A DNA stretch of 64,000 nt from Malacoraja senta. Its lineage: Eukaryota. A program made the position numbers and the translations under genes. The notes beneath the pieces were generated by a model. The model was not told the origin of the DNA. It made no database searches and was given only the letters and a program-made list of their open reading frames with translations. Shown in pieces: positions 5,929 through 55,699 of this stretch. The stretch spans positions 8,434,001 through 8,498,000 of the forward strand of contig CM075989.1 of assembly GCA_038087875.1 (NCBI GenBank). The letters run 5' to 3'. Position 1 is the first letter of the stretch. Each line of letters begins with the position of its first letter.

Positions 5929-6170
5929 GTTTAGTTTAGTTTCGAGATACAGCGTGGAAACAGGGCCTCGGCCCACCGAGTCCGTGCCGGCCAGCGATCC
6001 CCGCACACTAACACCATCCTACACACTAGGGACAGTTTACAATTTACAGAAACCAAATCAACCTACAAACCTGTACGTCTTTGGAGTGTGGGAGAAAACT
6101 GGAGCACCCAGGGGAAAACCCATGCGGTCACAAGGAGAACATACAAACTCCATACCGACAGCACCCGTCA
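5929..6170 (-). mobile_element. HE1-type V-SINE, 5'-truncated
   Basis: (tttag)n tail, ggaaacagggcctcggcccacc, V-domain reverse complement. Confidence 0.8.
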
Positions 6171-6363
6171 CCAGAAGGATCAGCAGTCAAAGAGATGGCT
6201 CAGTACCATCTTTTTAAGGGCAATCGGCAATACGTACTACTCGTCGGTGATGCTAAATGAATGAAGTCAATCTGTGGTAAAATAACCCAAAATATTGGAA
6301 AAAGTGCTTTGCAAACATTTGCAAAATTGAACACTACTCAGTTGAGATTAAAGTCAGTGAGAT

Positions 6364-6476
6364 TCTTCTTCTTGCGTATGGTGTGCACAGCCTAACAAAA
6401 AACTACATCTGCAGGTCGGGTTGATTGCATTAGTCGAAACAGGGTGGACCACGTGAAGGTTGCAATCCCCCACCCC
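6364..6476 (-). mobile_element. Short non-autonomous retroposon, family A (HDV-like ribozyme head, GAA tail), internally deleted copy
   Basis: 12-bp TSD agtcagtgagat at 6352-6363 and 6477-6488; (gaa)n tail; both ends nearly identical to 55507-55646. Confidence 0.85.
6423..6476 (-). ncRNA. Minimal HDV-like ribozyme (predicted)
   Basis: GGGGUGG-GG-GAUUGCA-ACC-UUCACGU-GGU-CCACCCU-G-UUUCGA-CUAA-UGCAAUC: P1, P2 and P3 fully paired, G.U wobble at position 1, J4/2 cytosine present. Confidence 0.8.
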
Positions 6477-6859
6477 AGTCAGTGAGATAACAGCCTTTGA
6501 CAAGCAAGTTTGAGATACTACCTCCTGGCATATGATGTGTGACCTGACTTTTTATGCCGCCTTTTAAAAAGGCAATGGACTGAACAGGGAAGAGATTTGT
6601 AATGAGCACACGTTTTCATGCTATACCTTTCAACCCAATTAGGTTGAGTTTATCAGTCAATCAGATTAAATTGAGGTAACACTGAGGAGGTTCCAGCGTT
6701 TGGACTATGATGTGAAAAGAATACTTGGTGGGGGCACCTGCTCTTCAATTTCAGTTGCTTTTCTCCTCCACACACAAACACACAGGTACCCCACTGCACA
6801 CACAAGCCAAGATCATAGAAGGCTAGTATCTTTGCACACATGTACATGGTTACAAACAT

Positions 6860-16876: not shown

Positions 16877-17349
16877 ATAGACAATAGGTGCAGGAGTAGG
16901 CCATTCAGCCCTTCGAGCCAGCACCGCCATTCAATGTGATCATGGCTGATCATCCCCAATCAGTACCCCGTTCCTGCCTTCTCCCCATAACCCCTGACTC
17001 CGCTATTTTTAAGAGCCCTATCTAGCTCTCTCTTGAAAGTATCCAGAGAACCTGCCTCCACCGCCCTCTGAGGCAGAGAATTCCACAGACTCACCACTCT
17101 CTGTGAGAAAAAGTTTCCTCGTCTCCGTTCTAAATGGCTTACTCCTTATTCTTAAACTGTGGCCCCTGGTTCTGGACTCCCCCAACATTGGGAACATGTT
17201 TCCTGCCTCTAGCGTGTCCAAACCCTTAACAATCGTATATGTTTCAATGAGATCCCCTCTCGTCCTTCTAAACTCCAGAGTGTACAAGCCCAGCTGCTCC
17301 ATTCTCTCAACATATGACAGTCCCGCCATCCCGGGAATTAACCTTGTAA
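16877..17349 (-). mobile_element. CR1 LINE 3' fragment (outer host of the nest; continues at 22130-22206)
   Basis: 'TRLIPGMAGLSYVERMEQLGLYTLEFRR.RGDLIETY'; continuation aaacctacgctgcactccctcaatagc after the Penelope; accttgtaa duplicated at 17341-17349 and 22130-22138. Confidence 0.9.
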
Positions 17350-18430
17350 GCCAATCTTTCCCCCCTGAACGCACTGCCATCGACTCATTCCGCAACAACC
17401 TAGATTGGGTTATCAAACCCGCCGACAAGGGAGGTGCCGTGGTAGTCTGGCGCGTCGATCTCTACAAAGCTGAGACCACGCGTCAACTCTCGGATACCTC
17501 CTCCTACTTACCCTTGGACCATGACCCCACTGACGAGCACCAGGCCACCATCTCCAGCACCATCACCGACTTCATCCACTCCCACGCCCTGCCCGACCGA
17601 GCCTCCAACCTCATCGTTCCCCAGCCCCGCACAGCCCGCTTTTACCTTCCCCCCAAAATCCACAAACCTGACTGTCCCGGTAGACCCATTGTCTCTGCCT
17701 GTTCGTGCCCCACCGAACTCATCTCCACCTACCTCGACTCCATCCTATCCCCCTTGGTTAAATCCCTCCCTATCTATGTTCAAGACACCTCAGACACTCT
17801 CCGTCGTCTCCACGCATTCCGCTCTCTAGGCCCTCACCCCTTCATCTTCACCATGGACGTCCAGTCATTGTACACCTCCATCCCCCACCAGGATGGTCTC
17901 GAAGCCCTCCGTTTTCTCCTCGACCGAAGAAGCAACCTATACCCGGCCATTGACACCCTCCTCCGCCTAGCGGAGCTGGTCCTTACCCTCAATAACTTCT
18001 CATTTGACTCCTCCCATTTCCTCCAAATACAAGGCGTAGCTATGGGCACATGCTTGGGCCCCAGCTACGCCTGCCTCTTTGTCGGGTACGTAGAACAATC
18101 CTTGTTCAATGCGTACCAGGGCCCCATCCCCGACCTCTACCTCCGCTACATCGATGACTGTTTTGGTGCCACATCCTGCACCCACACACAACTGACTGAC
18201 TTCATCCGCTTCACCACCAACTTCCATCCGGCACTCAAATACACCTGGACCATTTCCAACACTTCCCTACCATTCCTTGACCTCACTATTTCCATCGCAG
18301 GTGATAGACTTCTTACCGACATCCACTACAAACCTACCGACTCCCATGGCTATCTGGACTACACTTCTTCCCACCCTGCTTCCTGTAAGGACTCCATCCC
18401 CCACTCCCAATTCCTCCGTCTATGCCACAT
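17350..18430 (+). CDS. Penelope-like element reverse transcriptase, 5'-truncated (part 1)
   Basis: VIKPADKGGAVVV, FYLPPKIHK..PGRPIVS, MDVQSLYTSIP, GVAMGTCLGPSYA, YLRYIDD and LPFLD are diagnostic PLE RT motifs; no stops. Confidence 0.95.
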
Positions 18431-21146
18431 AGAAACATAGAAACATAGAAAGTAGGTGCGAGAGTAGACCACCAGGCCCATCGAGCCCGCACCGCCATTC
18501 GCTCATGGCTGAACACTAAACAGACACCCTTACCCACAAACAGTAGACACAAGACACAGAACACAAGACACTACCCTCCCCTTTATATCGCTATCACCCC
18601 TCTCCACCCCAAGAACCGCGTGATCTCCTGGGGAGGCAAAAAAACGGATAAAAACCCAGGTCCAATTCGGGAAAAAAATCCGGGAAATTCCTCTCCGACC
18701 CCAATCCAGGCGATCGACACTTGTCCAGGAGATCACTCAGGTCTTACTATACTAACCATACCTAGGTCCATATCCCTGCCCTCTCCCCGTAGCCCCTTAT
18801 CCCCTTGGCAGCTAAAAAACCATCTATTTTAGATTTAAATATATTTAATGTTTCTGCTTCCACTGCTCCCTGGGGCAGTGAATTCCATAAATTAACCACC
18901 CTCTGGGTGAAGAAGTTCTTCCTCATCTCAGTTTTAAAAGAGCCCCCTCTTATTCTACAACTATGTCCCCTAGTTCTAGTTTCCCCGATCATTGGGAACA
19001 TCCTCGGTGCATCCACCCGATCAAGGCCCCTCACGATCTTATATGTTTCAATGAGATCGCCTCTCATTCTTCTAAACTCCAAAGAGTAGAGTTCCAGCCT
19101 ACTTAACCTTTCCTCATATGTCAATCCCCTCATTGCAGGAATTAATCTTGTAAACCTTCGCTGCACTGCCTCCAGGGCCAGTACATCCTTTCTTAAGTAT
19201 GGACCCCAGAACTGTACACAGTATTCCAAATGTGGTCTCACTAATACTGTGTACAGCTGCAGCAAGACCTCCGTGTTTTTATACTCAATCCCCCTAGCAA
19301 TAAAGGCCAAAACTCCATTGGCCTTCCTGATTGCTTGCTGCACCTGCATACTAACTTTTAGTGATTCATGTACTACTACCCCTAGATCCCTTTGCGTTGC
19401 ATTACAACGCAGCTCCACCTCATTTAGAAAATAACTTGCCCTATCATTTTTTTTCCCAAAGTGAATGACTTCACATTTATTAGTATTAAATTTCATCTGC
19501 CAAGTTGTTGCCCACTCACCTAGCTTATCTATATCCTTTTGCAGACTCTTCCTATCCTCCTCATCCCCTACTTTTCCTCCCATTTTTGTATCGTCCGCAA
19601 ATTTTGATATATTACACTTGGTTCCCTCCTCCAAATCATTTATATAAATTGTAAACAACTGGGGTCCCAGCACCGACCCTTGCGGAACCCCGCTAGTTAC
19701 CGGTTGCCATCCCGAGTATGAACCATTTATCCCCACTCTCTGTTTCCTATTTGTTAGCCAATCCTCTACCCATGCTAATATATTACCCCCAATCCCATAA
19801 TTTTTTATTTTTAGCAATAGTCTCTTATGTGGCACCTTGTCAAAAGCCTTTTGGAAGTCCAAGTATACCACATCCACCGGTTCCCCTTTATCCACCCGGG
19901 TTGTTACTTCCTCAAAGAATTCGAGCAGATTCGTTAAACAGGACTTCCCCTTCACAAAACCATGCTGGTTCTGTCCGATGAAGTCATGTTTATCCAAGTG
20001 CCCCGTTAGTGTTTCTTTAATAATTGTCTCTAACATTTTACCCACCACCGATGTTAGACTAACCGGTCTATAGTTACCCGCCTTCTGTTTACTTCCTTTT
20101 TTAAATATAGGTGTTACATTGGCCATTTTCCAATCCACTGGGACCGTTCCTGCCTCCAGGGAGTTTTGGAAAATTATCACCAATGCATCCACAATCCCCA
20201 CCGCTATCTCCCTCAAGACCCTTGGATGTAATCCATCAGGCCCAGGGGATTTATCCTCCTTCAGTCTCATTAATTTCCCTAATACCACCTCCTTGGTGAT
20301 CTTAATAGTATTTAGCTCCTCCATTCCTACCGCCCCCTGTTTATCCAGCGTTGGAATATTTTTTGTGTCTTCTATGGTGAAGACTGATACAAAATACTCG
20401 TTTAATGCCTTTGCCATTTCCATGTTCCCCACCAACAACTCTCCAGTCTCACCCTCCAATGGACCAACGTTCACCTTAGCCACCCTTTTTCTTTTTATAT
20501 AGCTATAAAAACTCTTACTATTAGTTTTTATGTTGTTCGCTAAATTCCTTTCATAGTCTATTTTCCCCGTCTTAATTAATCTCTTAGTTATTTTTTGCTG
20601 ACCTTTAAATGCTTCCCAATCCTCTACCCTCCCACTATCTCTAGCTACCTTATATGCCCTTGCCTTCAGCCGAATACTATCCTTTATAGTTTTACTGAGC
20701 CATGGCTGACTGTTCTTTCCCTTACCCCTTTTTTTCTTCATAGGAATAAATTTTTCTTGAAGGTTATACAGTAGATCCTTAAACGTACACCACTGCTCAT
20801 GTACCGTCTTATTCTTGAGTCTGCTATCCCAGTCAACTTTGATCAGCTCAGTCCTCATACCTTCATAATCCCCTTTATTTAGACTAAGTACCCTAGCCTG
20901 AGTTTCAACCTGCTCTCCTTCTATTTGAATATGGAATTCGACCATATTGTGGTCACTTGTTCCCAACGAGTCCCTAACTATGACATTTTTAATTAATCCT
21001 GCTTCATTACACAGGACCAGATCCAAGATTGCCTCCCTCCTTGTCGGTTCTGTGACATACTGTTCTAGGAACCCGTCTCTAATACATTCTATAAACTCTT
21101 CCTCTAGTCTACCCTGCCCAGTTTGGTTTGCCCAATTAATATGAAA
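18428..21146 (-). mobile_element. Young 5'-truncated CR1 LINE inserted in the Penelope ORF
   Basis: (TTTCTATG)n CR1 tail at 18428-18450; 3' UTR up to 18761; uninterrupted ORF2. Confidence 0.95.
18762..21146 (-). CDS. CR1 ORF2: C-terminal part of APE endonuclease plus reverse transcriptase
   Basis: ILDLVL and SDHNMV (APE); KSPGPDG, NYRPVSLTS, QHGF, YLDFQKAFDKV, GVPQGSVLGP and FADD; open for ~795 codons. Confidence 0.95.
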   Translation of the reverse strand, partial: FHINWANQTGQGRLEEEFIECIRDGFLEQYVTEPTRREAILDLVLCNEAGLIKNVIVRDSLGTSDHNMVEFHIQIEGEQVETQARVLSLNKGDYEGMRTELIKVDWDSRLKNKTVHEQWCTFKDLLYNLQEKFIPMKKKRGKGKNSQPWLSKTIKDSIRLKARAYKVARDSGRVEDWEAFKGQQKITKRLIKTGKIDYERNLANNIKTNSKSFYSYIKRKRVAKVNVGPLEGETGELLVGNMEMAKALNEYFVSVFTIEDTKNIPTLDKQGAVGMEELNTIKITKEVVLGKLMRLKEDKSPGPDGLHPRVLREIAVGIVDALVIIFQNSLEAGTVPVDWKMANVTPIFKKGSKQKAGNYRPVSLTSVVGKMLETIIKETLTGHLDKHDFIGQNQHGFVKGKSCLTNLLEFFEEVTTRVDKGEPVDVVYLDFQKAFDKVPHKRLLLKIKNYGIGGNILAWVEDWLTNRKQRVGINGSYSGWQPVTSGVPQGSVLGPQLFTIYINDLEEGTKCNISKFADDTKMGGKVGDEEDRKSLQKDIDKLGEWATTWQMKFNTNKCEVIHFGKKNDRASYFLNEVELRCNATQRDLGVVVHESLKVSMQVQQAIRKANGVLAFIARGIEYKNTEVLLQLYTVLVRPHLEYCVQFWGPYLRKDVLALEAVQRRFTRLIPAMRGLTYEERLSRLELYSLEFRRMRGDLIETYKIVRGLDRVDAPRMFPMIGETRTRGHSCRIRGGSFKTEMRKNFFTQRVVNLWNSLPQGAVEAETLNIFKSKIDGFLAAKGIRGYGERAGIWT

Positions 21147-21929
21147 ATCTGCTCCCAGGATGAGGTGTTCCACACCAGGACATCCGAAATGTCCTCATTC
21201 TTCAGGGAACGGGGGTTCCCCTCCTCCACCATAGATGAGGCTCGCACCAGGGTCTCTGCCATACCCCGCAACACTGCTCTCTCTCCCCATCCCCCCACTC
21301 ACAACAAGGGCAGAGTCCCCCTAGTCCTCACCTTTCACCCCACCCGCCGTTACATACAACAAGTGATCCTCCGTCAGTTTCGCCACCTCCAATGTGACCC
21401 CACCACTCGCCACATCTTCCCATCTCCCCCCATGTCTGCCTTCCGCAAAGACCGCTCCCTCCGTAACTCCCTTGTCAATTCTTCCCTTCCCTCCCGTACC
21501 ACCCCCTCCCCGGGTACTTTCCCTTGCAACCGCAAGAGATGCAACACTTGTCCCTTCACCTCCCCCCTCGACTCCATTCAAGGACCTAAGCAGTCGTTCC
21601 AGGTGCGACAGAGGTTCACCTGCATCTCCTCCAACCTCATCTATTGCATCCGCTGCTCTAGATGCCAGCTGATCTACATCGGTGAGACCAAGCGGAGGCT
21701 TGACGATCGTTTCGCCGAACACCTCCGGTCGGTCCGCAATAACCAACCTGACCTCCCGGTGGCTCAGCACTTCAACTCCCCCTCCCATTCCGTATCTGAC
21801 CTCTCCGTCCTGGGTCTCCTCCATGGCCACAGCGAGCAACACCGGAAATTGGAGGAAATGCACCTCATATTCCGCTTGGGCAGTCTACATCCTGGGGGCT
21901 TGAACATTGAATTCTCCCAATTCTGCTAG
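21147..21929 (+). CDS. Penelope-like element thumb/linker plus GIY-YIG endonuclease (part 2)
   Basis: ERGFP, CNRKRCNTC, NLIYCIRCSRCQLIYIGETKRRLDDRFAEH, PVAQHF and GLN motifs; in frame with part 1 once the CR1 is removed. Confidence 0.95.
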   Translation: MCSQDEVFHTRTSEMSSFFRERGFPSSTIDEARTRVSAIPRNTALSPHPPTHNKGRVPLVLTFHPTRRYIQQVILRQFRHLQCDPTTRHIFPSPPMSAFRKDRSLRNSLVNSSLPSRTTPSPGTFPCNRKRCNTCPFTSPLDSIQGPKQSFQVRQRFTCISSNLIYCIRCSRCQLIYIGETKRRLDDRFAEHLRSVRNNQPDLPVAQHFNSPSHSVSDLSVLGLLHGHSEQHRKLEEMHLIFRLGSLHPGGLNIEFSQFC

Positions 21930-33069: not shown

Positions 33070-35688
33070 TAGAAACATAGAAACATAGAAATTAGGTGCA
33101 GGAGTAGGCCATTCGGCCCTTCGAGCCTGCACCGCCATTCAATATGATCATGGCTGATCATCCAACTCAGTATCCCATACCTGCCTTCTCTCCATACCCT
33201 CTGATCCCCTTAGCCACAAGGGCCACATCTAACTCCCTCTTCAATATAGCCAATGAACTGGCCTCAACTACCCTCTGTGGCAGAGAGTTCCAGAGATTCA
33301 CCACACTCTGTGTGAAAAAAGTTCTTCTCATCTCGGTTTTAAAGGATTTCCCCCTTATCCTTAAGCTGTGACCCCTTGTCCTGGACTTCCCCAACATCGG
33401 GAGCAATCTTCCTGCATCTAGCCTGTCCAACCCCTTAAGAATTTTGTAAGTTTCTACAAGATCCCCTCTCAATCTCCTAAATTCTAGAGAGTATAAACCA
33501 AGTCTATCCAGTCTTTCTTCATAAGACAGTCCTGACATCCCAGGAATCAGTCTGGTGAACCTTCTCTGCACTCCCTCTATGGCAATAATGTCCTTCCTCA
33601 GATTTGGAGACCAAAACTGTACGCAATATTCCAGGTGTGGTCTCACCAAGACCCTGTACAACTGCAGTAAAACCTCCCTGCTCCTATACTCAAATCCTTT
33701 TGCTATGAAAGCTAACATACCATTCGCTTTCTTCACTGCCTGCTGCACCTGCATGCCTACTTTCAATGACTGGTGTACCACGACACCCAGGTCTCGCTGC
33801 ATCTCCCCTTTTCCTAGTTGGCCACCATTTAGATAATAGTCTGCTTTCCTGTTTTTGCCACCAAAATGGATAACCTCACATTTATCCACATTATACTGAA
33901 TCTGCCAAACATTTGCCCACTCACCCAGCCTATCCAAGTCACCTTGCAGTCTCCTAGCATCCCCCTCACAGCTAACACTGCCCCCCAGCTTAGTGTCATC
34001 TGCAAACTTGGAGATATTGCATTCAATTCCCTCATCCAGTTCATTAATATATATTGTAAATAGCTGGGGTCCCAGCACTGAGCCTTGCGGTACCCCACTA
34101 GTCACTGCCTGCCATTGTGAAAAGGACCCGTTTACTCCCACTCTTTGCTTCCTGTTTGCCAGCCAGTTCTCTATCCACATCAATACTGAACCCCCAATGC
34201 CATGTGCTTTAAGTTTGTATACTAATCTCTTATGTGGGACCTTGTCGAAATCCTTCTGGAAGTCCAGATACACCACATCCACTGGTTCTCCCCTATCCAC
34301 GCTACTAGTTACATCCTCGAAAAATTCTATAAGATTCGTCAGACATGATTTACCTTTCGTAAATCCATGCTGACTTTGTCCAATGATTTCACCACTTTCC
34401 AAATGTGCTGCTATCCCATCTTTAATAACTGACTCTAGCAGTTTCCCCACTACCGATGTTAGACTAACTGGTCTGTAATTCCCCGTTTTCTCTCTCCCTC
34501 CCTTCTTAAAAAGTGGGGTTACGTTTGCTACCCGCCAATCCTCAGGAACTACTCCAGAATCTAAAGAGTTTTGAAAGATTATTACTAATGCATCCACTAT
34601 TTCTGGAGCTACTTCCTTAAGTACTCTGGGATGCAGCCCATCTGGCCTTGGGGATTTATCGGCCTTTAATCCATTCAATTTACCCAACACCACTTCCCGA
34701 CTAACCTGGATTTCACTCAATTCCTCCAACTCCTTTGACCCGCGGTCCCCTGCTATTTCCGGCAGATTATTTATGTCTTCCTTAGTGAAGACGGAACCAA
34801 AGTAGTTATTCAATTGGTCCGCCATATCCTTGTTCCCCATGATCAACTCACCTGTTTCTGACTGCAAGGGACCTACATTTTTTTAAACTAATATCTTTTT
34901 TTTCACATATCTATAAAAACTTTTGCAGTCAGTTTTTATGTTCCCTGCCAGTTTTCTTTCATAATCTATTTTTCCTTTCCTAATTAAGCCCTTTGTCCTC
35001 CTCTGCTGGTCTCTGAATTTCTCCCAGTCCTCCGGTATGCTGCTTTTTCTGGCTAATTTGTACGCATCATCCTTCGCTTTGATACTATCCCTGATTTCCC
35101 TTGTTATCCACGAATGCACTACCTTCCCTGATTTATTCTTTTGCCAGACTGGGATGAACAATTTTTGTAGTTCATCCATGCAGTCTTTAAATGTCTTCCA
35201 TTGCATATCCACCGTCAACCCTTTTAGAATTAATTGCCAGTCAATCTTGGCCAATTCACGTCTCATACCCTCAAAGTTACCTTTCTTTAAGTTCAGAACC
35301 ATTGTTTCTGAATTAACAATGTCACTCTCCATCCTAATGAAGAACTCAACCATATTATGGTCACTCTTGCCCAAGGGGGCACGTACAACAAGACTGCTAA
35401 CTAACCCTTCCTCATTACTCAATACCCAGTCTAAAATAGCCTGCTCTCTCGTTGGTTCCTCTACATGTTGATTTAGATAACTATCCCGCATACATTCCAA
35501 GAAATCCTCTTCCTCAGCACCCCTGCCAATTTGATTCACCCAATCTATATGTAGATTGAAGTCACCCATTATAACTGTTTTGCCTTTGTCGCACGCATTT
35601 CTAATTTCCTGTTTGATGCCATCCCCAACTTCACTACTACTGTTAGGTGGCCTGTACACAACACCCACCAGCGTTTTCTGCCCCTTAG
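33070..35688 (-). mobile_element. Near-intact 5'-truncated CR1 LINE
   Basis: (TTTCTATG)n tail at 33070-33090; ORF2 covers endonuclease and RT. Confidence 0.95.
33167..35688 (-). pseudogene. CR1 ORF2 (APE + RT) with one in-frame TAA at 34883-34885
   Basis: ORFs 34883-35668 (VYRPP, MGDFN, SDHN) and 33167-34867 (QHGF, GVPQGSVLGP, FADD) are in the same frame, separated by one stop. Confidence 0.9.
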
Positions 35689-37789
35689 ATCATTTGCAAC
35701 AATTCACAGCACCAACATGCAGAGTTAGAGGATAATTAAACCTCCATCTAGCAAATATTGAAATGGTCTTTTTGTCAAAGATGCCACAGCATTTTAACAC
35801 TTACTGATCAATTTGAATGTATTTGCAGACTCTTGGATAAAGGCTTCTACTAGCTTGTAAGAAAATATCACAATGTCTTTGTTAAGCCTCTTTGGGAAAA
35901 TTTGATTGTATTGACCGGAATAATGGGTATGGGTACAACTGGACTCAAGACAACTTGTTGTTGTATTAAATACTATCAGTAGGATAGAGGACTGCCAGAA
36001 TCTTGTTCATATGTTCCAATAATCAGATGAAAAATTATTTTAAATAATACTACCATAGAATGGATAGAAATTAGTTTGACACAAGCAGATGAAGACATTA
36101 CTCATGTTTAACGATGATATCATGGTATGGTTTTAACCCAACATGACTTAATCCCATACTTAAAAAAACATGAAATAGTGAAACATTTCACTGCTTTAAA
36201 CCACTATCCCTATAATGTATTTGGGAAGATGAAGAATTTTACGCTGGTTTACATTAAAGTTAGGGTGGTTACCTCTCATTTTCCTCATATTGTAAACATT
36301 ATCCTAGCTGAGAGAGCGTGCAGGCAAGGGACCCATTCTCTGCAAATTCAGCAGGCGCTAAGGGATGCACTGAAGCTCGATGGAGCCAATGCAAAAGCTT
36401 TGTGGGGAAAGACTGCAGTCTAAGGTCCACCTGCCGCTGCATCCTGAGTGACTAAGCCCTGTGTAAAAGCCTCTCAGACATCTGAAATTGGTATTGCCCC
36501 AAGCCTCATGAGTGGTAATGGTGCTCTGCATGTAGAATGTTATGGGGTGTCAAAGGTTACGGGGAGAAGGCAGGGGAATGGGGTTAGGATAGAGAGATAG
36601 ATCAGCCATGATTAAATGGCAGAGTAGACTTAATGGGCCGAATGGCCTAATTCTGATCCTATCACTTACGATCTTATGACTGGATAACACTATCAACGTA
36701 AAGAAAGCCATTTCCTTTTTTTCCTATTTCTTGCATATATTCTTTATGAATACAGCTTCCGTTTGAAATTTAAAAATCCTTGTAACCAAATGTAGAGAGT
36801 GATGAAGGAGCTATCTGGCTTAAACTGGCTTCTGACCCAGCTTGTGATCCTCCATCCGACTGACAAACATCAATCTAATCTATTTCAATAATACTTTCAA
36901 AACATTACATGCGACAGAAGGATTCTGACCTTTTCATTAATTGAGAAACCTATTTTTGAATGTTGTTGGCTTTAAGCAATAGATTCTGAAAATTATGTGC
37001 TCTCACAAGGCTTTGCTAATCTAATACCTTTTTGGATTGATGTGGCTTATGGCTTATTCAACTTAGTAAGCACAGCTAATTCTTAGAGCAATTGGTCTGT
37101 CCATGCAACAAAATAATTCTAAACCTCAGCAAGGGAAAGGGGACTAATTTCTGCTTTCTCTAAAGAAGATACATTAATCTGCTTTAGTATTACTCAGAAA
37201 ACATTGCCAGAAAAGATAAAAAGAAAAGCCATCTTGCACCACTTCCTCCATGATCACTCCAGCTGGTAGTATTATAGACAGGGGTCACTGGTCTTGGAAC
37301 ATTCATTACAAAAGAGCCACGCCTTTGCTACAGTTATGGCGTGTTCTAAGCAGCCTCACATGTAGTAATGACACTTTACGATGAATGCCGTGACGCACTT
37401 TACAAGGTCAAATGGTCCCTTCAAGGAATTTAACCCAGACTAGACCCCACAGATTTTCTTTCTGGCCAACATTCATCCGTCAACTAACACCATGTGTGGA
37501 TGGAATGGTCGTGTATTTGAGGGATACTGTGTCGTGCAGAACCTGGCTGCTGCTTTTCCCTAACATTTCAATGAAGTCTTCAGACATGCTCGACTGGAAC
37601 ACACCTTGACCCATTCTACAGTATTGAACAATGTTATTTGAATGCAAATTATTCCTTCATGACAGACCTTTCTTTGAAATAAGCCCTTATTGATTTGTAT
37701 CAACTGCCAAATCCCTCTTCCTGTCACTTCTGTTCTGCTTTTAGTCCCTTTTTACTGATCTGATTGTGTGGCCAGGATGGGTAGATTCT

Positions 37790-44316: not shown

Positions 44317-45303
44317 TTATACAGAACTTAAAATAGTTTCTGCAAACAGCCCCGTATTGGTAATAGGCCGATAGTAAAACTGTTGAAACATCAACTCATT
44401 GGACCACCCGGCGGCTGCGAGAATATGGTCGACGGGGACGTCCTTCGCCGTGGCCGCCGACGTTGCTGCTGCCCTAGTCGAATGGGACGTAAAAACATCA
44501 GTGTTAATACCTGCAGCAATCAAGACTTGTTTTAGCCATCTTGAAATAGTCTGTACTGAGACTCTCTTGTGTGGTTTTTATTTGTGTGATAAACAAACCA
44601 GTTTCCATATTTCGTAAGACCCTTGTAACCTCAATGTATTGTAACAAATATGTCTTAGTACAGAGACATGGATCCGTTGGATATGCTGATAAAACAATTC
44701 TGAATCCTGTCACACCTGGCCTTCTTTGTTTCAGTAGGTCATAAATGTAAAACATAACATTATCTTCAGCCACTTACATCCTGTCTATTTGCAATTTTTG
44801 AAATGTCTGCACTCGCTGTGCTGTTACTAATGCCATAAGCATGACCACTTTCATACTGAGTTTGGCCAAAGTCAAAGACATACCAGGAGACCATTCACAA
44901 AGTAGCTTAAGAACCACACTTACAGTACATCCCAGATTGCCATGTACCTAGGCTTAGGCGGTCTGGAATTAAAAATTCCTTTCATCAATCTGGAAACAAG
45001 TGGATGAGACCCAATAGGATTTCCTTCCGACTCCACAAATAAATATGAGGACAATGCACTCCTGGCTGAATTAATTGCACTATAACTCAACCCCTCATTG
45101 TAATAAAGTGTTGACAAAAACTCTAAAACATTTGAGATATCTGCCGTACAATATTCAACATTATTTTGTACACAGAACTTTTCCCATTTCTTAATATAAG
45201 AAATGTACTGCTTTTGAGTGCTCTTCCTCCAGGCTGCCGTAAGCATGTCCACAGTATGCCCAGACAGTCCTTGCCCGAGAAAAGGCCTTCTTAAAACCTG
45301 CAA
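44317..45303 (-). pseudogene. DIRS tyrosine recombinase, disrupted
   Basis: 'GLSYSAINSARSALS', 'HPLVSRLMKG', TAQRVQ, 'FTSHSTRAAATS' (HxxR) and 'AAGWS...FQQFYYRPI' (catalytic Tyr); split over several ORFs. Confidence 0.85.
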
Positions 45304-45670
45304 ATTAACAAATCCAAACGATCATTTAATGGATGTTGTTCTCCTGTTACCAGATGCAGTAATAAATCCCTTCTTTTCGGGACTTTCATCAAAGGCCATG
45401 TCGTCAATTCTAATATCAAAGGAAACCATGGCTGTATAGGCCAATCTGGTACCACCAATACCCCTGAAGCGGTATCTTGCCTGATTTTAAGCAAACACCG
45501 ACTTATGAGGCAGAAAAGTGGAAATGCATACAAAAGCATACCACCCCAATGTAGCGAGAAAGCATCAATCGCTACTGCACCTGGATCTGGTTACAATGAC
45601 ACATATCTCGATAGCTGATGATTTAATCTAGATGCGAACAAGTCGATATCTGGCATTCCAAATCTGATTA
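45291..45670 (-). pseudogene. DIRS adenine-methyltransferase-like domain, disrupted
   Basis: 'PDIDLFASRLN', DAFSLHW, 'YAFPLF' (YAFPPF-like) and 'VLVVPDWPIQPWFP'; stop at 45591-45593. Confidence 0.75.
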
Positions 45671-47057
45671 CTATGTCATTGAATACCTCTCTATTCAACA
45701 TCCATTCTTTGTTATCATGGAATTTCCTTGACCTGGTGTCTGCTATAATATCCAATCTACCTGGTAGATAAATAGCAGAAATCCAAATACTCCTGTCAAT
45801 ACACCAAGACCAGATTTGATTAGCCAACTTATCACATGACACCGACTTGATTCCACCCATGTGATTAATATATGCCACTGCTGTTGTATTATCAATTTGC
45901 AACTGAACATGCAGGTTAGTTGTGTTAGAGCAATAAGCTTGGAGTCCATAGAACCCTCCTAAAAGCTCCAAATAGTTGATTCCCCATGTCTGCAGAAACA
46001 ATGCCTCTTCCGTATTCCATCTGCCTCCGCAGCTGGATACCAAATCAGTTGCACCCCATCCTAGTGCACTGACATCAGTTTGTAATACCATGGAAGGCTG
46101 TTCAGTCAGTATTTTGCTGAAACTGCTTGAGACATGTAGAATCCACCACTGCAAATCAGAAACAGCATTTGTTGTTAATTGCATGGCCCTATCAAAATGG
46201 CCACCATGCATCCTCAGTGCCTGTTCTTTAGCTCTCTGTAGCTGTTGGAAATGTAATGGCCCATATTGTACTGCTGGAAAAGCTGCTACTAATTTCCCCA
46301 GCACTCTAGCCACATGTCTAATTGAAGGTTTTCTCTCATTTAACAGCTTAATGCAACCATCAATCAACTCCACCCTTTTTTCACTGAGCAAAGTAATTTC
46401 CATGTGAACTGAATCAATTGTGAAACCCAGATAATCAATTGATGTACGTGGTGTTAACCTTGATTTCTTTAGATGAATTAGAAAACCCAAACTTTCAAAA
46501 GTGGATTTAACAACTGAGACAGATAACTCAGCTAACTCTTTTGTTCGTCCTATAATCAGGACATCATCCAGGTACTCCATTACCACATGCCCCTGGCCTC
46601 TCAGCAGCCCTAGAATTGGTTTTAATAATTTAGTGAATATTCTGGGAGCTGAAGTTAACCCATTAGGCAGAGCTTTAAACTGCCATAACTGATTCATCCA
46701 GGTAAATTTTAGATATTTTCTATCTTCCAAATGAACAGACACTGAATAATATGCATCTTTTAGATCAATAGTTGCCATATAACATGCTTTTGAAATCAGT
46801 TGTTTGGCAGTCACAAAAGTCTCCATTTTAAAGTGTCTAAATTGAACAAAAGGATTAAGACTTGTCAAGTCCAAAATAATCTTACATCCTCCATCCATTT
46901 TAGGTCGGGGAAATATATTAGACACTAATTGGTGGGTTTGATAAACCGACTTTTCAATAACACCTTTATTACATAGGTTTTCAAGTTCAGCTTGAACCTC
47001 CATCACTTCTTTTTGTGAAAACTGGAGTATTCTGCTAGGAACATGCTGGATGGGCAA
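45591..47057 (-). CDS. DIRS reverse transcriptase plus RNase H
   Basis: 'IDLKDAYY', 'FKALPNGLTSAPRIFTK' and 'YLDD'; RNase H 'TDVSALGWGA', 'INYLEL' and 'DNTTAVAYINHMGG'. Confidence 0.92.
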   Translation of the reverse strand: MPIQHVPSRILQFSQKEVMEVQAELENLCNKGVIEKSVYQTHQLVSNIFPRPKMDGGCKIILDLTSLNPFVQFRHFKMETFVTAKQLISKACYMATIDLKDAYYSVSVHLEDRKYLKFTWMNQLWQFKALPNGLTSAPRIFTKLLKPILGLLRGQGHVVMEYLDDVLIIGRTKELAELSVSVVKSTFESLGFLIHLKKSRLTPRTSIDYLGFTIDSVHMEITLLSEKRVELIDGCIKLLNERKPSIRHVARVLGKLVAAFPAVQYGPLHFQQLQRAKEQALRMHGGHFDRAMQLTTNAVSDLQWWILHVSSSFSKILTEQPSMVLQTDVSALGWGATDLVSSCGGRWNTEEALFLQTWGINYLELLGGFYGLQAYCSNTTNLHVQLQIDNTTAVAYINHMGGIKSVSCDKLANQIWSWCIDRSIWISAIYLPGRLDIIADTRSRKFHDNKEWMLNREVFNDIVIRFGMPDIDLFASRLNHQLSRYVSL

Positions 47058-47125
47058 ATCATAATTTGGATCGAACTCTATTCGAAATCCTTGTATAATA
47101 CTCAGAATAACAAAGTCTGAAGTAA

Positions 47126-48393
47126 TCAGCTTCCAACTTTTATAGAAGAGATGAATCTGCCCCCAACTTTTGGCTGTACTGCCTTCAATATGTTCCCATG
47201 AGAACCAGGTCCACCTACCTCCTTAGTCACTTGAGTGACCTGTGGTCCCTGGCTTCTGGCGGGAAGACCCACGCTTGTTCGTGTTCCCGCTGCAGGACGC
47301 CAACTACGCCCCTGCGACGATGATCGACTTGTTCCTGGTGTAGTCCCAGGATCAGTATGATGTCTGAAAGGATACCTCCTCTTCACAGACTTGCCAACCA
47401 TCGATGGTTTGATCAACCCGGCTGTTTTTGCCTCATCATCCAACTCCTTCACGCGTCTCGCGAGATCATCTCCAAAGAGTAAGTTGGGCAGCTGCACATT
47501 ACTGGGCTTGCAGAGTGCTACGAATTTGGGATTGATGGTGGGCCGAATAGCACACTTCCTCAAACAATTGATCTCGAGGTGGGCGCTACATAGCAACCCC
47601 AGTGCCTCCTGTCATCTGCTGGCCTTTATCCATTGTTCTGGCAAATGCAGTTATTCCAGAACCCAGCAGCTTTAATATTCTCTGCAGCTTTATTTCTTGA
47701 GCTCTCATGCTCATGCCCATCAGACCCCATATCACTTGGTTTACTGCTGGTGCTTTCAATAAAATGCAGGTCCTCAGGGTCTCGTGCTTTTTGGCAGTTT
47801 CATCCATCGTAAGCTGCTCCAGCTGATGGGATACCAAATAGTTGATCGTGGAGGCCAACTCCTCTCCCAGTGGCTCTCCTGACCCTGACGGGGCAGCGAA
47901 TCATACTGCCAGAGGTGGAATATCTGGCAGCTGCCGTTCTTCGCTTGAATCGGCCTCACCGTCAGAGTCGGGGTCAGAACTCTGCTGACCCTGTGCACGT
48001 GCCTCATCAATGAGGGTGCTCTCAAACAGCCCTTTGCTAGGTGCTGCTGACCTGGCTTCTGGAGCCTGACTTTGGCTACACTCTTCACTGAGTGTGCTTT
48101 TCTCCAGTAACCTGTGTATCAGGCTTTCCATCCGAGAGATCCGCTCAAAAGCGGTTTCCAGCCCTGGAGTCGCATCCTCCTCATCGGACTCCTCCTCCGT
48201 GGGCCGCACGGACTTGAATTTTGCCTTGCGCCCCACTGGCGCTGACTGAGTTCTTTTCAACCCCAAGTCCACAGTCGCTACGCTCCCAGCCGGCGACTGT
48301 ACAGGGGTCTGAGGCAGCTGTTCGCCGACCGCAATCTCGCGACTTTCCACCGGCTTTGCCGCTAGCCTCTTCCCCCTTGCCCGTTTTTTCCAT
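47126..48393 (-). pseudogene. DIRS gag-like ORF, frameshifted
   Basis: Upstream of RT; 'LLFGDDLARRVKEL' is typical of DIRS ORF1 C-termini; good-context ATG (gcaccATGG) at 48393. Confidence 0.65.
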
Positions 48394-55060: not shown

Positions 55061-55506
55061 AACTACGAGGGCCTTGCTGAGGCAGCGTGAGATGTAAATG
55101 GAGTCAATGGAAGTGAGGTTGGTTTGTGTGATGGGCAAACTTGCCCGTGGGTACTCTTGCCAGCCGAGGCACACGGGAAAAAGCATTTATGTTGCAACGC
55201 CATCCTGATGTGGAAATATATTGCGGGGCCATCATTATTGTTGAGCCTAAACTCTGGAACAAGCTGCCTGCGATCACCTTGGCCCAGTAGTTCCAGAAAA
55301 TGGCTCACCGCCACCCTCTCAGGGACATTCATTCATTGGTAATAGAAAATTGGCCTTGCTGTGATGCCCCATCCCGAAAAATTAAAGATATTGAAAATTA
55401 ATATCTCCACCAGAATATGGCACTGGCATGGCTAGAGAAGTTTGGCAAGAAAAACAGCGTCTGAAAATTGGGAAGTTTTTAAGAATCACAAAGTGTGAGT
55501 CAGGAA

Positions 55507-55646
55507 CTTCTTCTTCTTCTTGCGTATGGCGTGCACAGCCTAAAGATGTAGATCAACTTGTTCTATTTGATCTTGCTTGTGCACGTCGGGTTGATTGCAT
55601 TAGTCGAAACAGGGTGGACCACGTGAAGGTTGCAATCTCCCACCCC
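55507..55646 (-). mobile_element. Short non-autonomous retroposon, family A (HDV-like ribozyme head, 3' hairpin, GAA tail), full copy
   Basis: 9-bp TSD agtcaggaa at 55498-55506 and 55647-55655; (gaa)n tail. Confidence 0.88.
55593..55646 (-). ncRNA. Minimal HDV-like ribozyme (predicted)
   Basis: GGGGUGG-GA-GAUUGCA-ACC-UUCACGU-GGU-CCACCCU-G-UUUCGA-CUAA-UGCAAUC. Confidence 0.82.
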
Positions 55647-55699
55647 AGTCAGGAATTGATAGATATAGAAAAGAGGAATGTAGCACAAAATATTTTTTT

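Follow-up and report, generated by a model that had tools for sequence, protein, structure and literature searches.

Two trypanosome retroposons, NARTc (from L1Tc) and RIME (from ingi), are the closest described relatives in design of the element reported here: each is short and non-coding, retains the first and the last bases of its LINE, carries an HDV-like ribozyme at its exact 5' end, and lies between 11-12-bp target duplications (as set out in the available portion of PMC3383444). Vingi-1_EE, the R2 SIDEs, RTE-N and Bov-A are likewise internally deleted LINEs with both ends kept, and the accessible text of PMC5786205 reports bipartite derivatives of this type only for RTE, Ingi, Vingi and R2. 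Two ribozyme systems are also relevant: the minimal HDV-like or ‘theta’ ribozymes, which lack P4, have a short J1/2 and L4, place the catalytic C first in J4/2, and are described from metagenomes and gut phages, beside tRNAs (bioRxiv 10.1101/2023.06.13.544163, in the part available); and the mammalian CPEB3 ribozyme (RF00622), which is single-copy and intronic.

The element at positions 6364..6476 of the window (by which is meant the whole 64-kb stretch of Malacoraja senta DNA that was analysed) is of a kind already known: a bipartite LINE derivative with a predicted 5' HDV-like ribozyme, like NARTc. Unlike NARTc (as the available text describes it), it resides in a vertebrate-sized animal genome and has a parent without RNase H; it measures 113-140 nt instead of 263, its predicted head has 54 nt and no P4 (77 nt and a P4 in NARTc), and its tail is (AAG)n instead of poly(A). 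The predicted head resembles the minimal ribozymes in each of the structural traits listed above, and in contrast to them it begins a eukaryotic retroposon. With the CPEB3 ribozyme it shares L3, G1.U36, U20/G25, P1.1 and a four-base J4/2, whereas its stem sequences are different, P4 is absent, it falls below detection by the CPEB3 model, and the element that carries it is mobile and present in thousands of copies.

The reading that we favour, at a probability of roughly 0.75, is that the element is a mutated, non-coding derivative of a LINE (likely a Vingi) whose P4-less HDV-like head likely excises the element's RNA just before G1. The single insertion at 6364 is ordinary, being one decayed copy among thousands. 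What is new, as far as the literature was searched, is the likely Vingi parent, the 54-nt P4-less head in an animal, the copy number of about ten thousand, and the CPEB3-near heads of sister LINEs. With such a family, Vingi would join the LINE clades that have a 5' ribozyme (among which the available text of PMC5786205 does not count it), and the P4-less HDV-like ribozyme, so far described from phage and metagenome sequences, would be present in large numbers in an animal genome. Its 113-140 bases would also bracket the smallest cis-signals for a Vingi protein, a matter of relevance to Vingi-based gene writers (PMC13708176, as far as its available text goes).

The element and its sister copy

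The features of the two copies in the window are as follows:

6364..6476, minus strand: whole element, 113 nt, an internally deleted non-autonomous LINE derivative of the minor (B) junction type
6352..6363, no strand: target site duplication, 12 bp, at the element's 3' side
6477..6488, no strand: target site duplication, 12 bp, directly before G1
6423..6476, minus strand: predicted P4-less HDV-like ribozyme, 54 nt (by descriptor, with features compared to the available text of PMC4836649)
6396..6422, minus strand: remaining LINE 5' UTR (LINE nt 55-91), aligned to L153, L155, L156 and B-type copies
Between 6411 and 6410, minus strand: private 10-nt deletion in the LINE 5' UTR part
6374..6395, minus strand: LINE 3' end, comprising the ORF end with stop codon and a short 3' UTR (30 of 30 LINE loci examined); likely the recognition site of the reverse transcriptase (RT)
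6364..6373, minus strand: (AAG)n tail, common to element and LINE
55507..55646, minus strand: second copy, 140 nt, of the major (A) junction type with a hairpin middle
55498-55506 and 55647-55655: 9-bp target duplication of the second copy

The initial annotation had described the 6364 copy as an independent insertion with its own 12-bp target duplication, beginning at the same G1 as the other copy and differing from it in the head at a single J1/2 position, and each of these statements was borne out. The 12-bp duplication is distinct from the 9-bp duplication of the second copy, and G1 adjoins the target duplication directly in both; a segmental duplication linking the two was rejected, as they are independent insertions with target duplications of their own. 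Over the first 54 nt the sole difference is at nt 9 (position 6468), in the 2-nt J1/2. This nucleotide is A in 75 of 77 sampled copies and G in none, so that the change is private to the 6364 copy and uninformative on selection. The two target sites have 6 bases in common beside G1, which look like chance because none of 63 other G1-starting copies has them; the same count rules out a target preference for that hexamer.

Each window copy has a ‘twin’ with the same flanks 148,217 bp upstream on contig C13, with flank identities of 100% over 3,115 nt and 99.87% over 3,144 nt. Since the offset is equal, the region is duplicated in the assembly, either because at least 52 kb were recently duplicated in tandem or because the assembly contains a false duplication. 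These twins do not tie the two window copies to each other.

Derivation from a parent LINE

In the major type the 3' part can be read as an ORF terminus. A genome search prompted by this reading, for the terminus preceded by a tryptophan codon, gave 162 sites. All 30 of the LINE loci examined have the ORF end, the short 3' UTR and the (AAG)n tail in common, and they reach from 71 to over 1,540 nt upstream, scattered lengths that indicate random 5' truncation. The LINE ORF has a C-terminal Cys/His motif. At the other end, a 5'-inverted LINE copy (L100), in which the head is followed by the N-terminus of the endonuclease, led to 30 matches and to near-full-length copies that carry the head; in one of these (L155) the sequence extends over 2.8 kb from head nt 2 through to the tail, with internal deletions and its own target duplication. 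Six of 10 LINE loci retrieved retain part of the head, their alignments starting at nt 2, 3, 9, 9, 9 and 43, and none of the 10 has a clean G1 start. Every LINE copy found is broken by stops and frameshifts. In five copies (L100, L159, L160, L161 and L162) the 5' part of the LINE is inverted relative to the 3' part, as twin priming would give.

Alignment to L153, L155 and L156 resolves the 6364 copy into LINE nt 1-91 followed directly by the last 32 nt of the LINE, with nothing between, and we regard this two-part anatomy as close to certain. The shorter body that the initial annotation had called unrelated (6396-6414) corresponds to nt 63-91 of the LINE 5' UTR, of which 10 nt are deleted and two are substituted. 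The traits by which a bipartite non-autonomous LINE is recognised, namely the extreme 5' end of the LINE, its extreme 3' end with tail, and amplification as a unit, are all found. A SINE proper (with a tRNA, 5S or 7SL head) was rejected, as the head is the LINE 5' end and has no Rfam match.

The B junction of the 6364 copy has 27 exact matches in the genome at 18 independent sites, and was thus amplified as a unit, yet it stayed a minor type (1 of 77 sampled copies). Segmental duplication has spread one B-type insertion over C2 and unplaced contigs, where it is present in eight copies (L372-L376 and L386-L388). The hairpin middle of the major type, as found at 55.5 kb, has no match in five LINE copies, so that the major type is the rearranged one. 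The earlier description of the 6364 body as ‘rearranged’ accordingly has the direction reversed, and it had mixed up a junction shared by a minor subfamily with damage private to one copy. Further junctions are seen in L020, L083 and L112.

Relative to its B-type relatives the 6364 copy carries four substitutions and the private 10-nt deletion. The deletion, together with the 89% identity of the best other genome matches, might be taken to mean that this copy founded, or belongs to, a subfamily mobile in its own right, with a body that is new and unrelated. The alignment of the body to the LINE 5' UTR speaks against that proposal, as does the absence of the deletion from all 27 B-junction matches (where these reach that far), and the only identical copy of the element is the upstream twin with the same flanks. 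Furthermore, 6314-6410 is spanned, across the same 3' junction, by a contig from one sample of a related organism (runs X22/X23), whose flank differs by about 7% and whose match ends at the deletion point. A separate subfamily is thus largely refuted by the LINE alignment and by the absence of the deletion elsewhere, and we consider it extremely improbable. As the insertion is common to the related organism, it is shared and not recent, and the 10-nt deletion probably postdates it. No pre-insertion (‘empty’) allele was present among the sequencing-run contigs examined.

The LINE-derived 5' and 3' parts of the element (element nt 60-69 and the 3' UTR) are complementary over 8 bases, and over 10 in the commonest subfamily; this complementarity may bring the ends of the LINE together for deletion or for RT binding. 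The lesions of the 6364 copy break the resulting 5'/3' stem (body fold of -7.4 kcal/mol, versus -12.9 and -17.8), and no retrotransposed offspring of this copy were found in the genome.

A Pfam search of the parent LINE detected an endonuclease and an RT, and did not find RNase H. Among the matches listed (120 of 455 homologues), most are single APE+RT proteins of ~1,000 aa on contigs of 3.1-3.7 kb, and the RNase H family occurs in none; the named homologues among them are from arthropods and a tunicate, and none bears a clade label. The parent LINE fits the architecture given for Vingi (a single ORF with APE and RT, no RNase H, and a length of about 3.1 kb) in the available text of PMC13708176. 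Sister-family proteins are only 30-39% identical to the parent LINE, the RT of L177 being at 39%. The RTE clade has the same architecture traits as Vingi. The Vingi label is assigned because of the architecture in combination with a likeness of heads to Vingi-2_Gav, through the sister families discussed below, and on these sequence features the parent LINE likely belongs to the Vingi clade.

The predicted ribozyme head

An HDV-type descriptor, applied to both strands of the window, matched only the two element heads. All 17 pairs of P1, P2 and P3 are satisfied in a fold with a P1 of 7 bp, a J1/2 of 2 nt, a P2 of 7 bp, a P3 of 3 bp and an L3 of 7 nt, and in such a model the nested double pseudoknot of P1, P2, P3 and P1.1 can form. 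A 7-nt linker stands in the place of the P4 hairpin, which fits the minimal HDV-like subclass, and J4/2 comprises 4 nt beginning with C (the predicted catalytic C44, at 6433). Like the CPEB3 ribozyme described in the available text of PMC4836649, the modelled head has a G1.U36 wobble, an L3 with U20 and G25, and a P1.1 that consists of one G-C and one U-U.

Besides CpG sites, the subfamily-level changes in the head are at nt 8 (in J1/2), at nt 32 (which turns a U-A into a U.G in P1) and at nt 45 (the second base of J4/2), all of which are compatible with an HDV fold. Seven heads of other families have L3 and J4/2 as here and different stems; 56 of their 112 pair cells are changed on both sides, 51 are the same, 1 is changed on one side and 4 are broken, counts that are partly circular because either a pairing descriptor or the CPEB3 model served to select the heads, from families that are related to one another.

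Automated annotation returned nothing: Rfam gave no match in the window at the gathering score and none for the head when 6300-6540 was searched at E up to 10, and RF00622 (35-bit cut-off) was neither reached by the 6364 head nor matched at E up to 10. Minimum-energy folding, which has pseudoknots outside its model, gives the head a different fold. Among metagenome relatives of the LINE found by protein alone (80 loci, 22 of them with a usable 5' region), a full head stands ~100-130 nt before the ORF in 2 of the 22 by a relaxed descriptor that picked out none of the 22 reversed and none of the 440 shuffled controls. Next to an RT match at L232 a third head occurs on the opposite strand, and decayed partial heads were recognised by eye in several further loci among the matches listed; Rfam gave no match in 15 of the relative loci. 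Most metagenome relatives are thus without a recognisable head, and this counts against the ribozyme reading, as do the missing Rfam match and the lack of a LINE copy with a clean start at G1. On balance the head is predicted, from its modelled fold, to be a P4-less HDV-like ribozyme that would cleave itself before G1.

Family size and 5' ends

The family is of high copy number and has been amplified with a target duplication for each copy, as the earlier suggestion of a high-copy family had anticipated from the two window copies. A 28-nt pattern from the 3' part has 2,655 exact matches in the genome (1,352 and 1,303 on the two strands) and a 35-nt pattern from the head has 2,511, and the reversed controls of both have none. 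The head pattern occurs in 18 of 90 copies picked by the 3' pattern, and the 3' pattern in 9 of 30 picked by the head, from which the total is roughly estimated at ~9,000-12,500 copies (12,500 and 8,900 from the two cross-samplings).

The positions of the 5' ends were taken from the first 90 matches to the 3' pattern (of the 2,655), on contig C1, a sample that is unbiased by the head because it was picked by the 3' pattern. Removal of five duplicate rows of one insertion (L084, L276, L313, L327 and L328) left 85 independent copies; top-scoring matches to the full element were left out of the counts because they are full-length by selection. The predicted enrichment of 5' ends at G1 is present in this sample: the start lies at G1 in 63 of the 85 copies, at nt 2 in 10, at nt 3 in 3 and at nt 5 in 1; another copy begins at nt 2 and has an internal deletion, and the remaining 7 are truncated. 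Of the 77 independent copies keeping the head, 63 have a called target duplication of 8-14 bp, with at most six extra bases between it and G1. T precedes G1 in 40 of 63 copies, compared with a background of 30% (p about 3e-8), and also stands at position -6 in 29 of 63; the T before G1 may stem from a preference in nicking or from an A added to the cDNA without a template.

The commonest 5' start coincides exactly with the predicted cut. As the initial annotation proposed, this end is likely, on the present evidence, to be set by self-cleavage, although that does not follow from two copies, which a promoter acting at +1 would match equally well. Indeed, an RNA of 113-140 nt would usually be copied whole, and sharp 5' ends therefore show only where the RNA started. 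That start could be set by an internal promoter for RNA polymerase II within the first ~55 bases, with the ribozyme inactive or retained for a role in translation, in protecting the RNA or in binding the RT: a short RNA is copied whole however its end arose, the 10 starts at nt 2 would also fit initiation there with G1 copied from the cap, the head has no P4 (and the available text of bioRxiv 10.1101/2023.06.13.544163 reports P4-less ribozymes outside the eukaryotes screened), and the first 77 nt of L1Tc/NARTc are a promoter as well as a ribozyme (PMC3383444, in the portion available). Set against this are the coincidence of the commonest start with the predicted cut and the retention of the predicted catalytic C, G1.U and L3 across families with different stems. 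An extra G before the start is the signature of a copied cap. The base before G1 is G in 9 of 63 copies against a background of 21%, with no excess and hence no sign of a copied cap, which argues weakly against a capped template. On these grounds a promoter as the sole determinant of the 5' end is judged unlikely.

A joint arrangement, in which most of the RNA comes from an internal promoter and cleavage is confined to trimming read-through copies, is known from L1Tc, in the sister Ingi clade (PMC3383444, available text), and would suit dispersed insertions in equal numbers on both strands, which need no host promoters in one orientation; we give it still less weight than the promoter acting alone. 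Cleavage remains, by the modelled fold and the distribution of starts, the probable main maker of the element's 5' end.

Under the cleavage reading, a copy of the element would be transcribed by read-through from a host promoter, and the ribozyme would trim the RNA's 5' end just before G1. The LINE protein would then bind the shared 3' end in trans (a step proposed because that end is shared), and target-primed reverse transcription would insert the element with an 8-14-bp duplication. The 6364 copy would have lost its 10 nt and gained its four substitutions subsequently, probably after insertion.

CPEB3-like heads in sister LINEs

Closer likenesses to the CPEB3 ribozyme are found at the heads of sister LINEs. 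The head of one metagenome contig (L177, 3117-3190) scores 55.6 bits on the mammalian CPEB3 model, for which the cut-off is 35, and closely matches nt 2-74 of the published Vingi-2_Gav, a stretch that, in the part of the PMC5786205 supplement available, forms a CPEB3-like head. Applied to the skate genome, the same model gave 51 matches in 59 scored candidates, 39 of them at or above the cut-off and the best at 64.2 bits. A LINE ORF of the same profile lies within 150 nt of a CPEB3-like head at 9 of 30 loci examined, and at a tenth it lies further on; the LINE 5' ends above the cut-off include L333-L343, L349 and L352.

Other CPEB3-like heads start further short families, and at least three more ribozyme-headed repeat families are present. 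One of these (L353, L355 and L359-L362, with a member at C13:8596080) has a head without P4 and with a 7-nt linker; the other groups are L337, L341 and L345, and L347, L350, L356 and L358.

The source of the CPEB3 ribozyme is unexplained in the portions of the literature searched, and the sister LINE heads offer a concrete, testable origin; judged by sequence, they likely show that source. The human genome retains a trace of Vingi, according to the available text of PMC5753468. A direction of descent from Vingi to CPEB3 is the one that we infer. A literature search found no paper linking Vingi to CPEB3, and Repbase or earlier surveys may describe Vingi ribozymes or the family itself. In its broadest form the proposal, which we favour with some reserve, would be that the Vingi clade starts with HDV-like ribozymes, that one branch shrank to a 54-nt P4-less form driving a ten-thousand-copy retroposon barely longer than itself, and that mammalian CPEB3 is a domesticated 5' end from another branch.

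Surroundings of the element in the window

No host gene domain was found in the 17 ORFs scanned among the window's 31. An APE+RT LINE occupies window positions 33170-35689 (minus strand). On the same strand, at 44923-47222, an integrase SAM-like domain comes after an RT, and the two likely represent a tyrosine-recombinase retrotransposon. At 17037-21929, an RT ORF on the minus strand (18765-21194) and a GIY-YIG match on the plus strand (21108-21926) represent Penelope-like pieces in opposed orientation. Adjoining the element, at 6000-6170, is another very abundant short repeat, which presumably resembles the SINEs of cartilaginous fishes.
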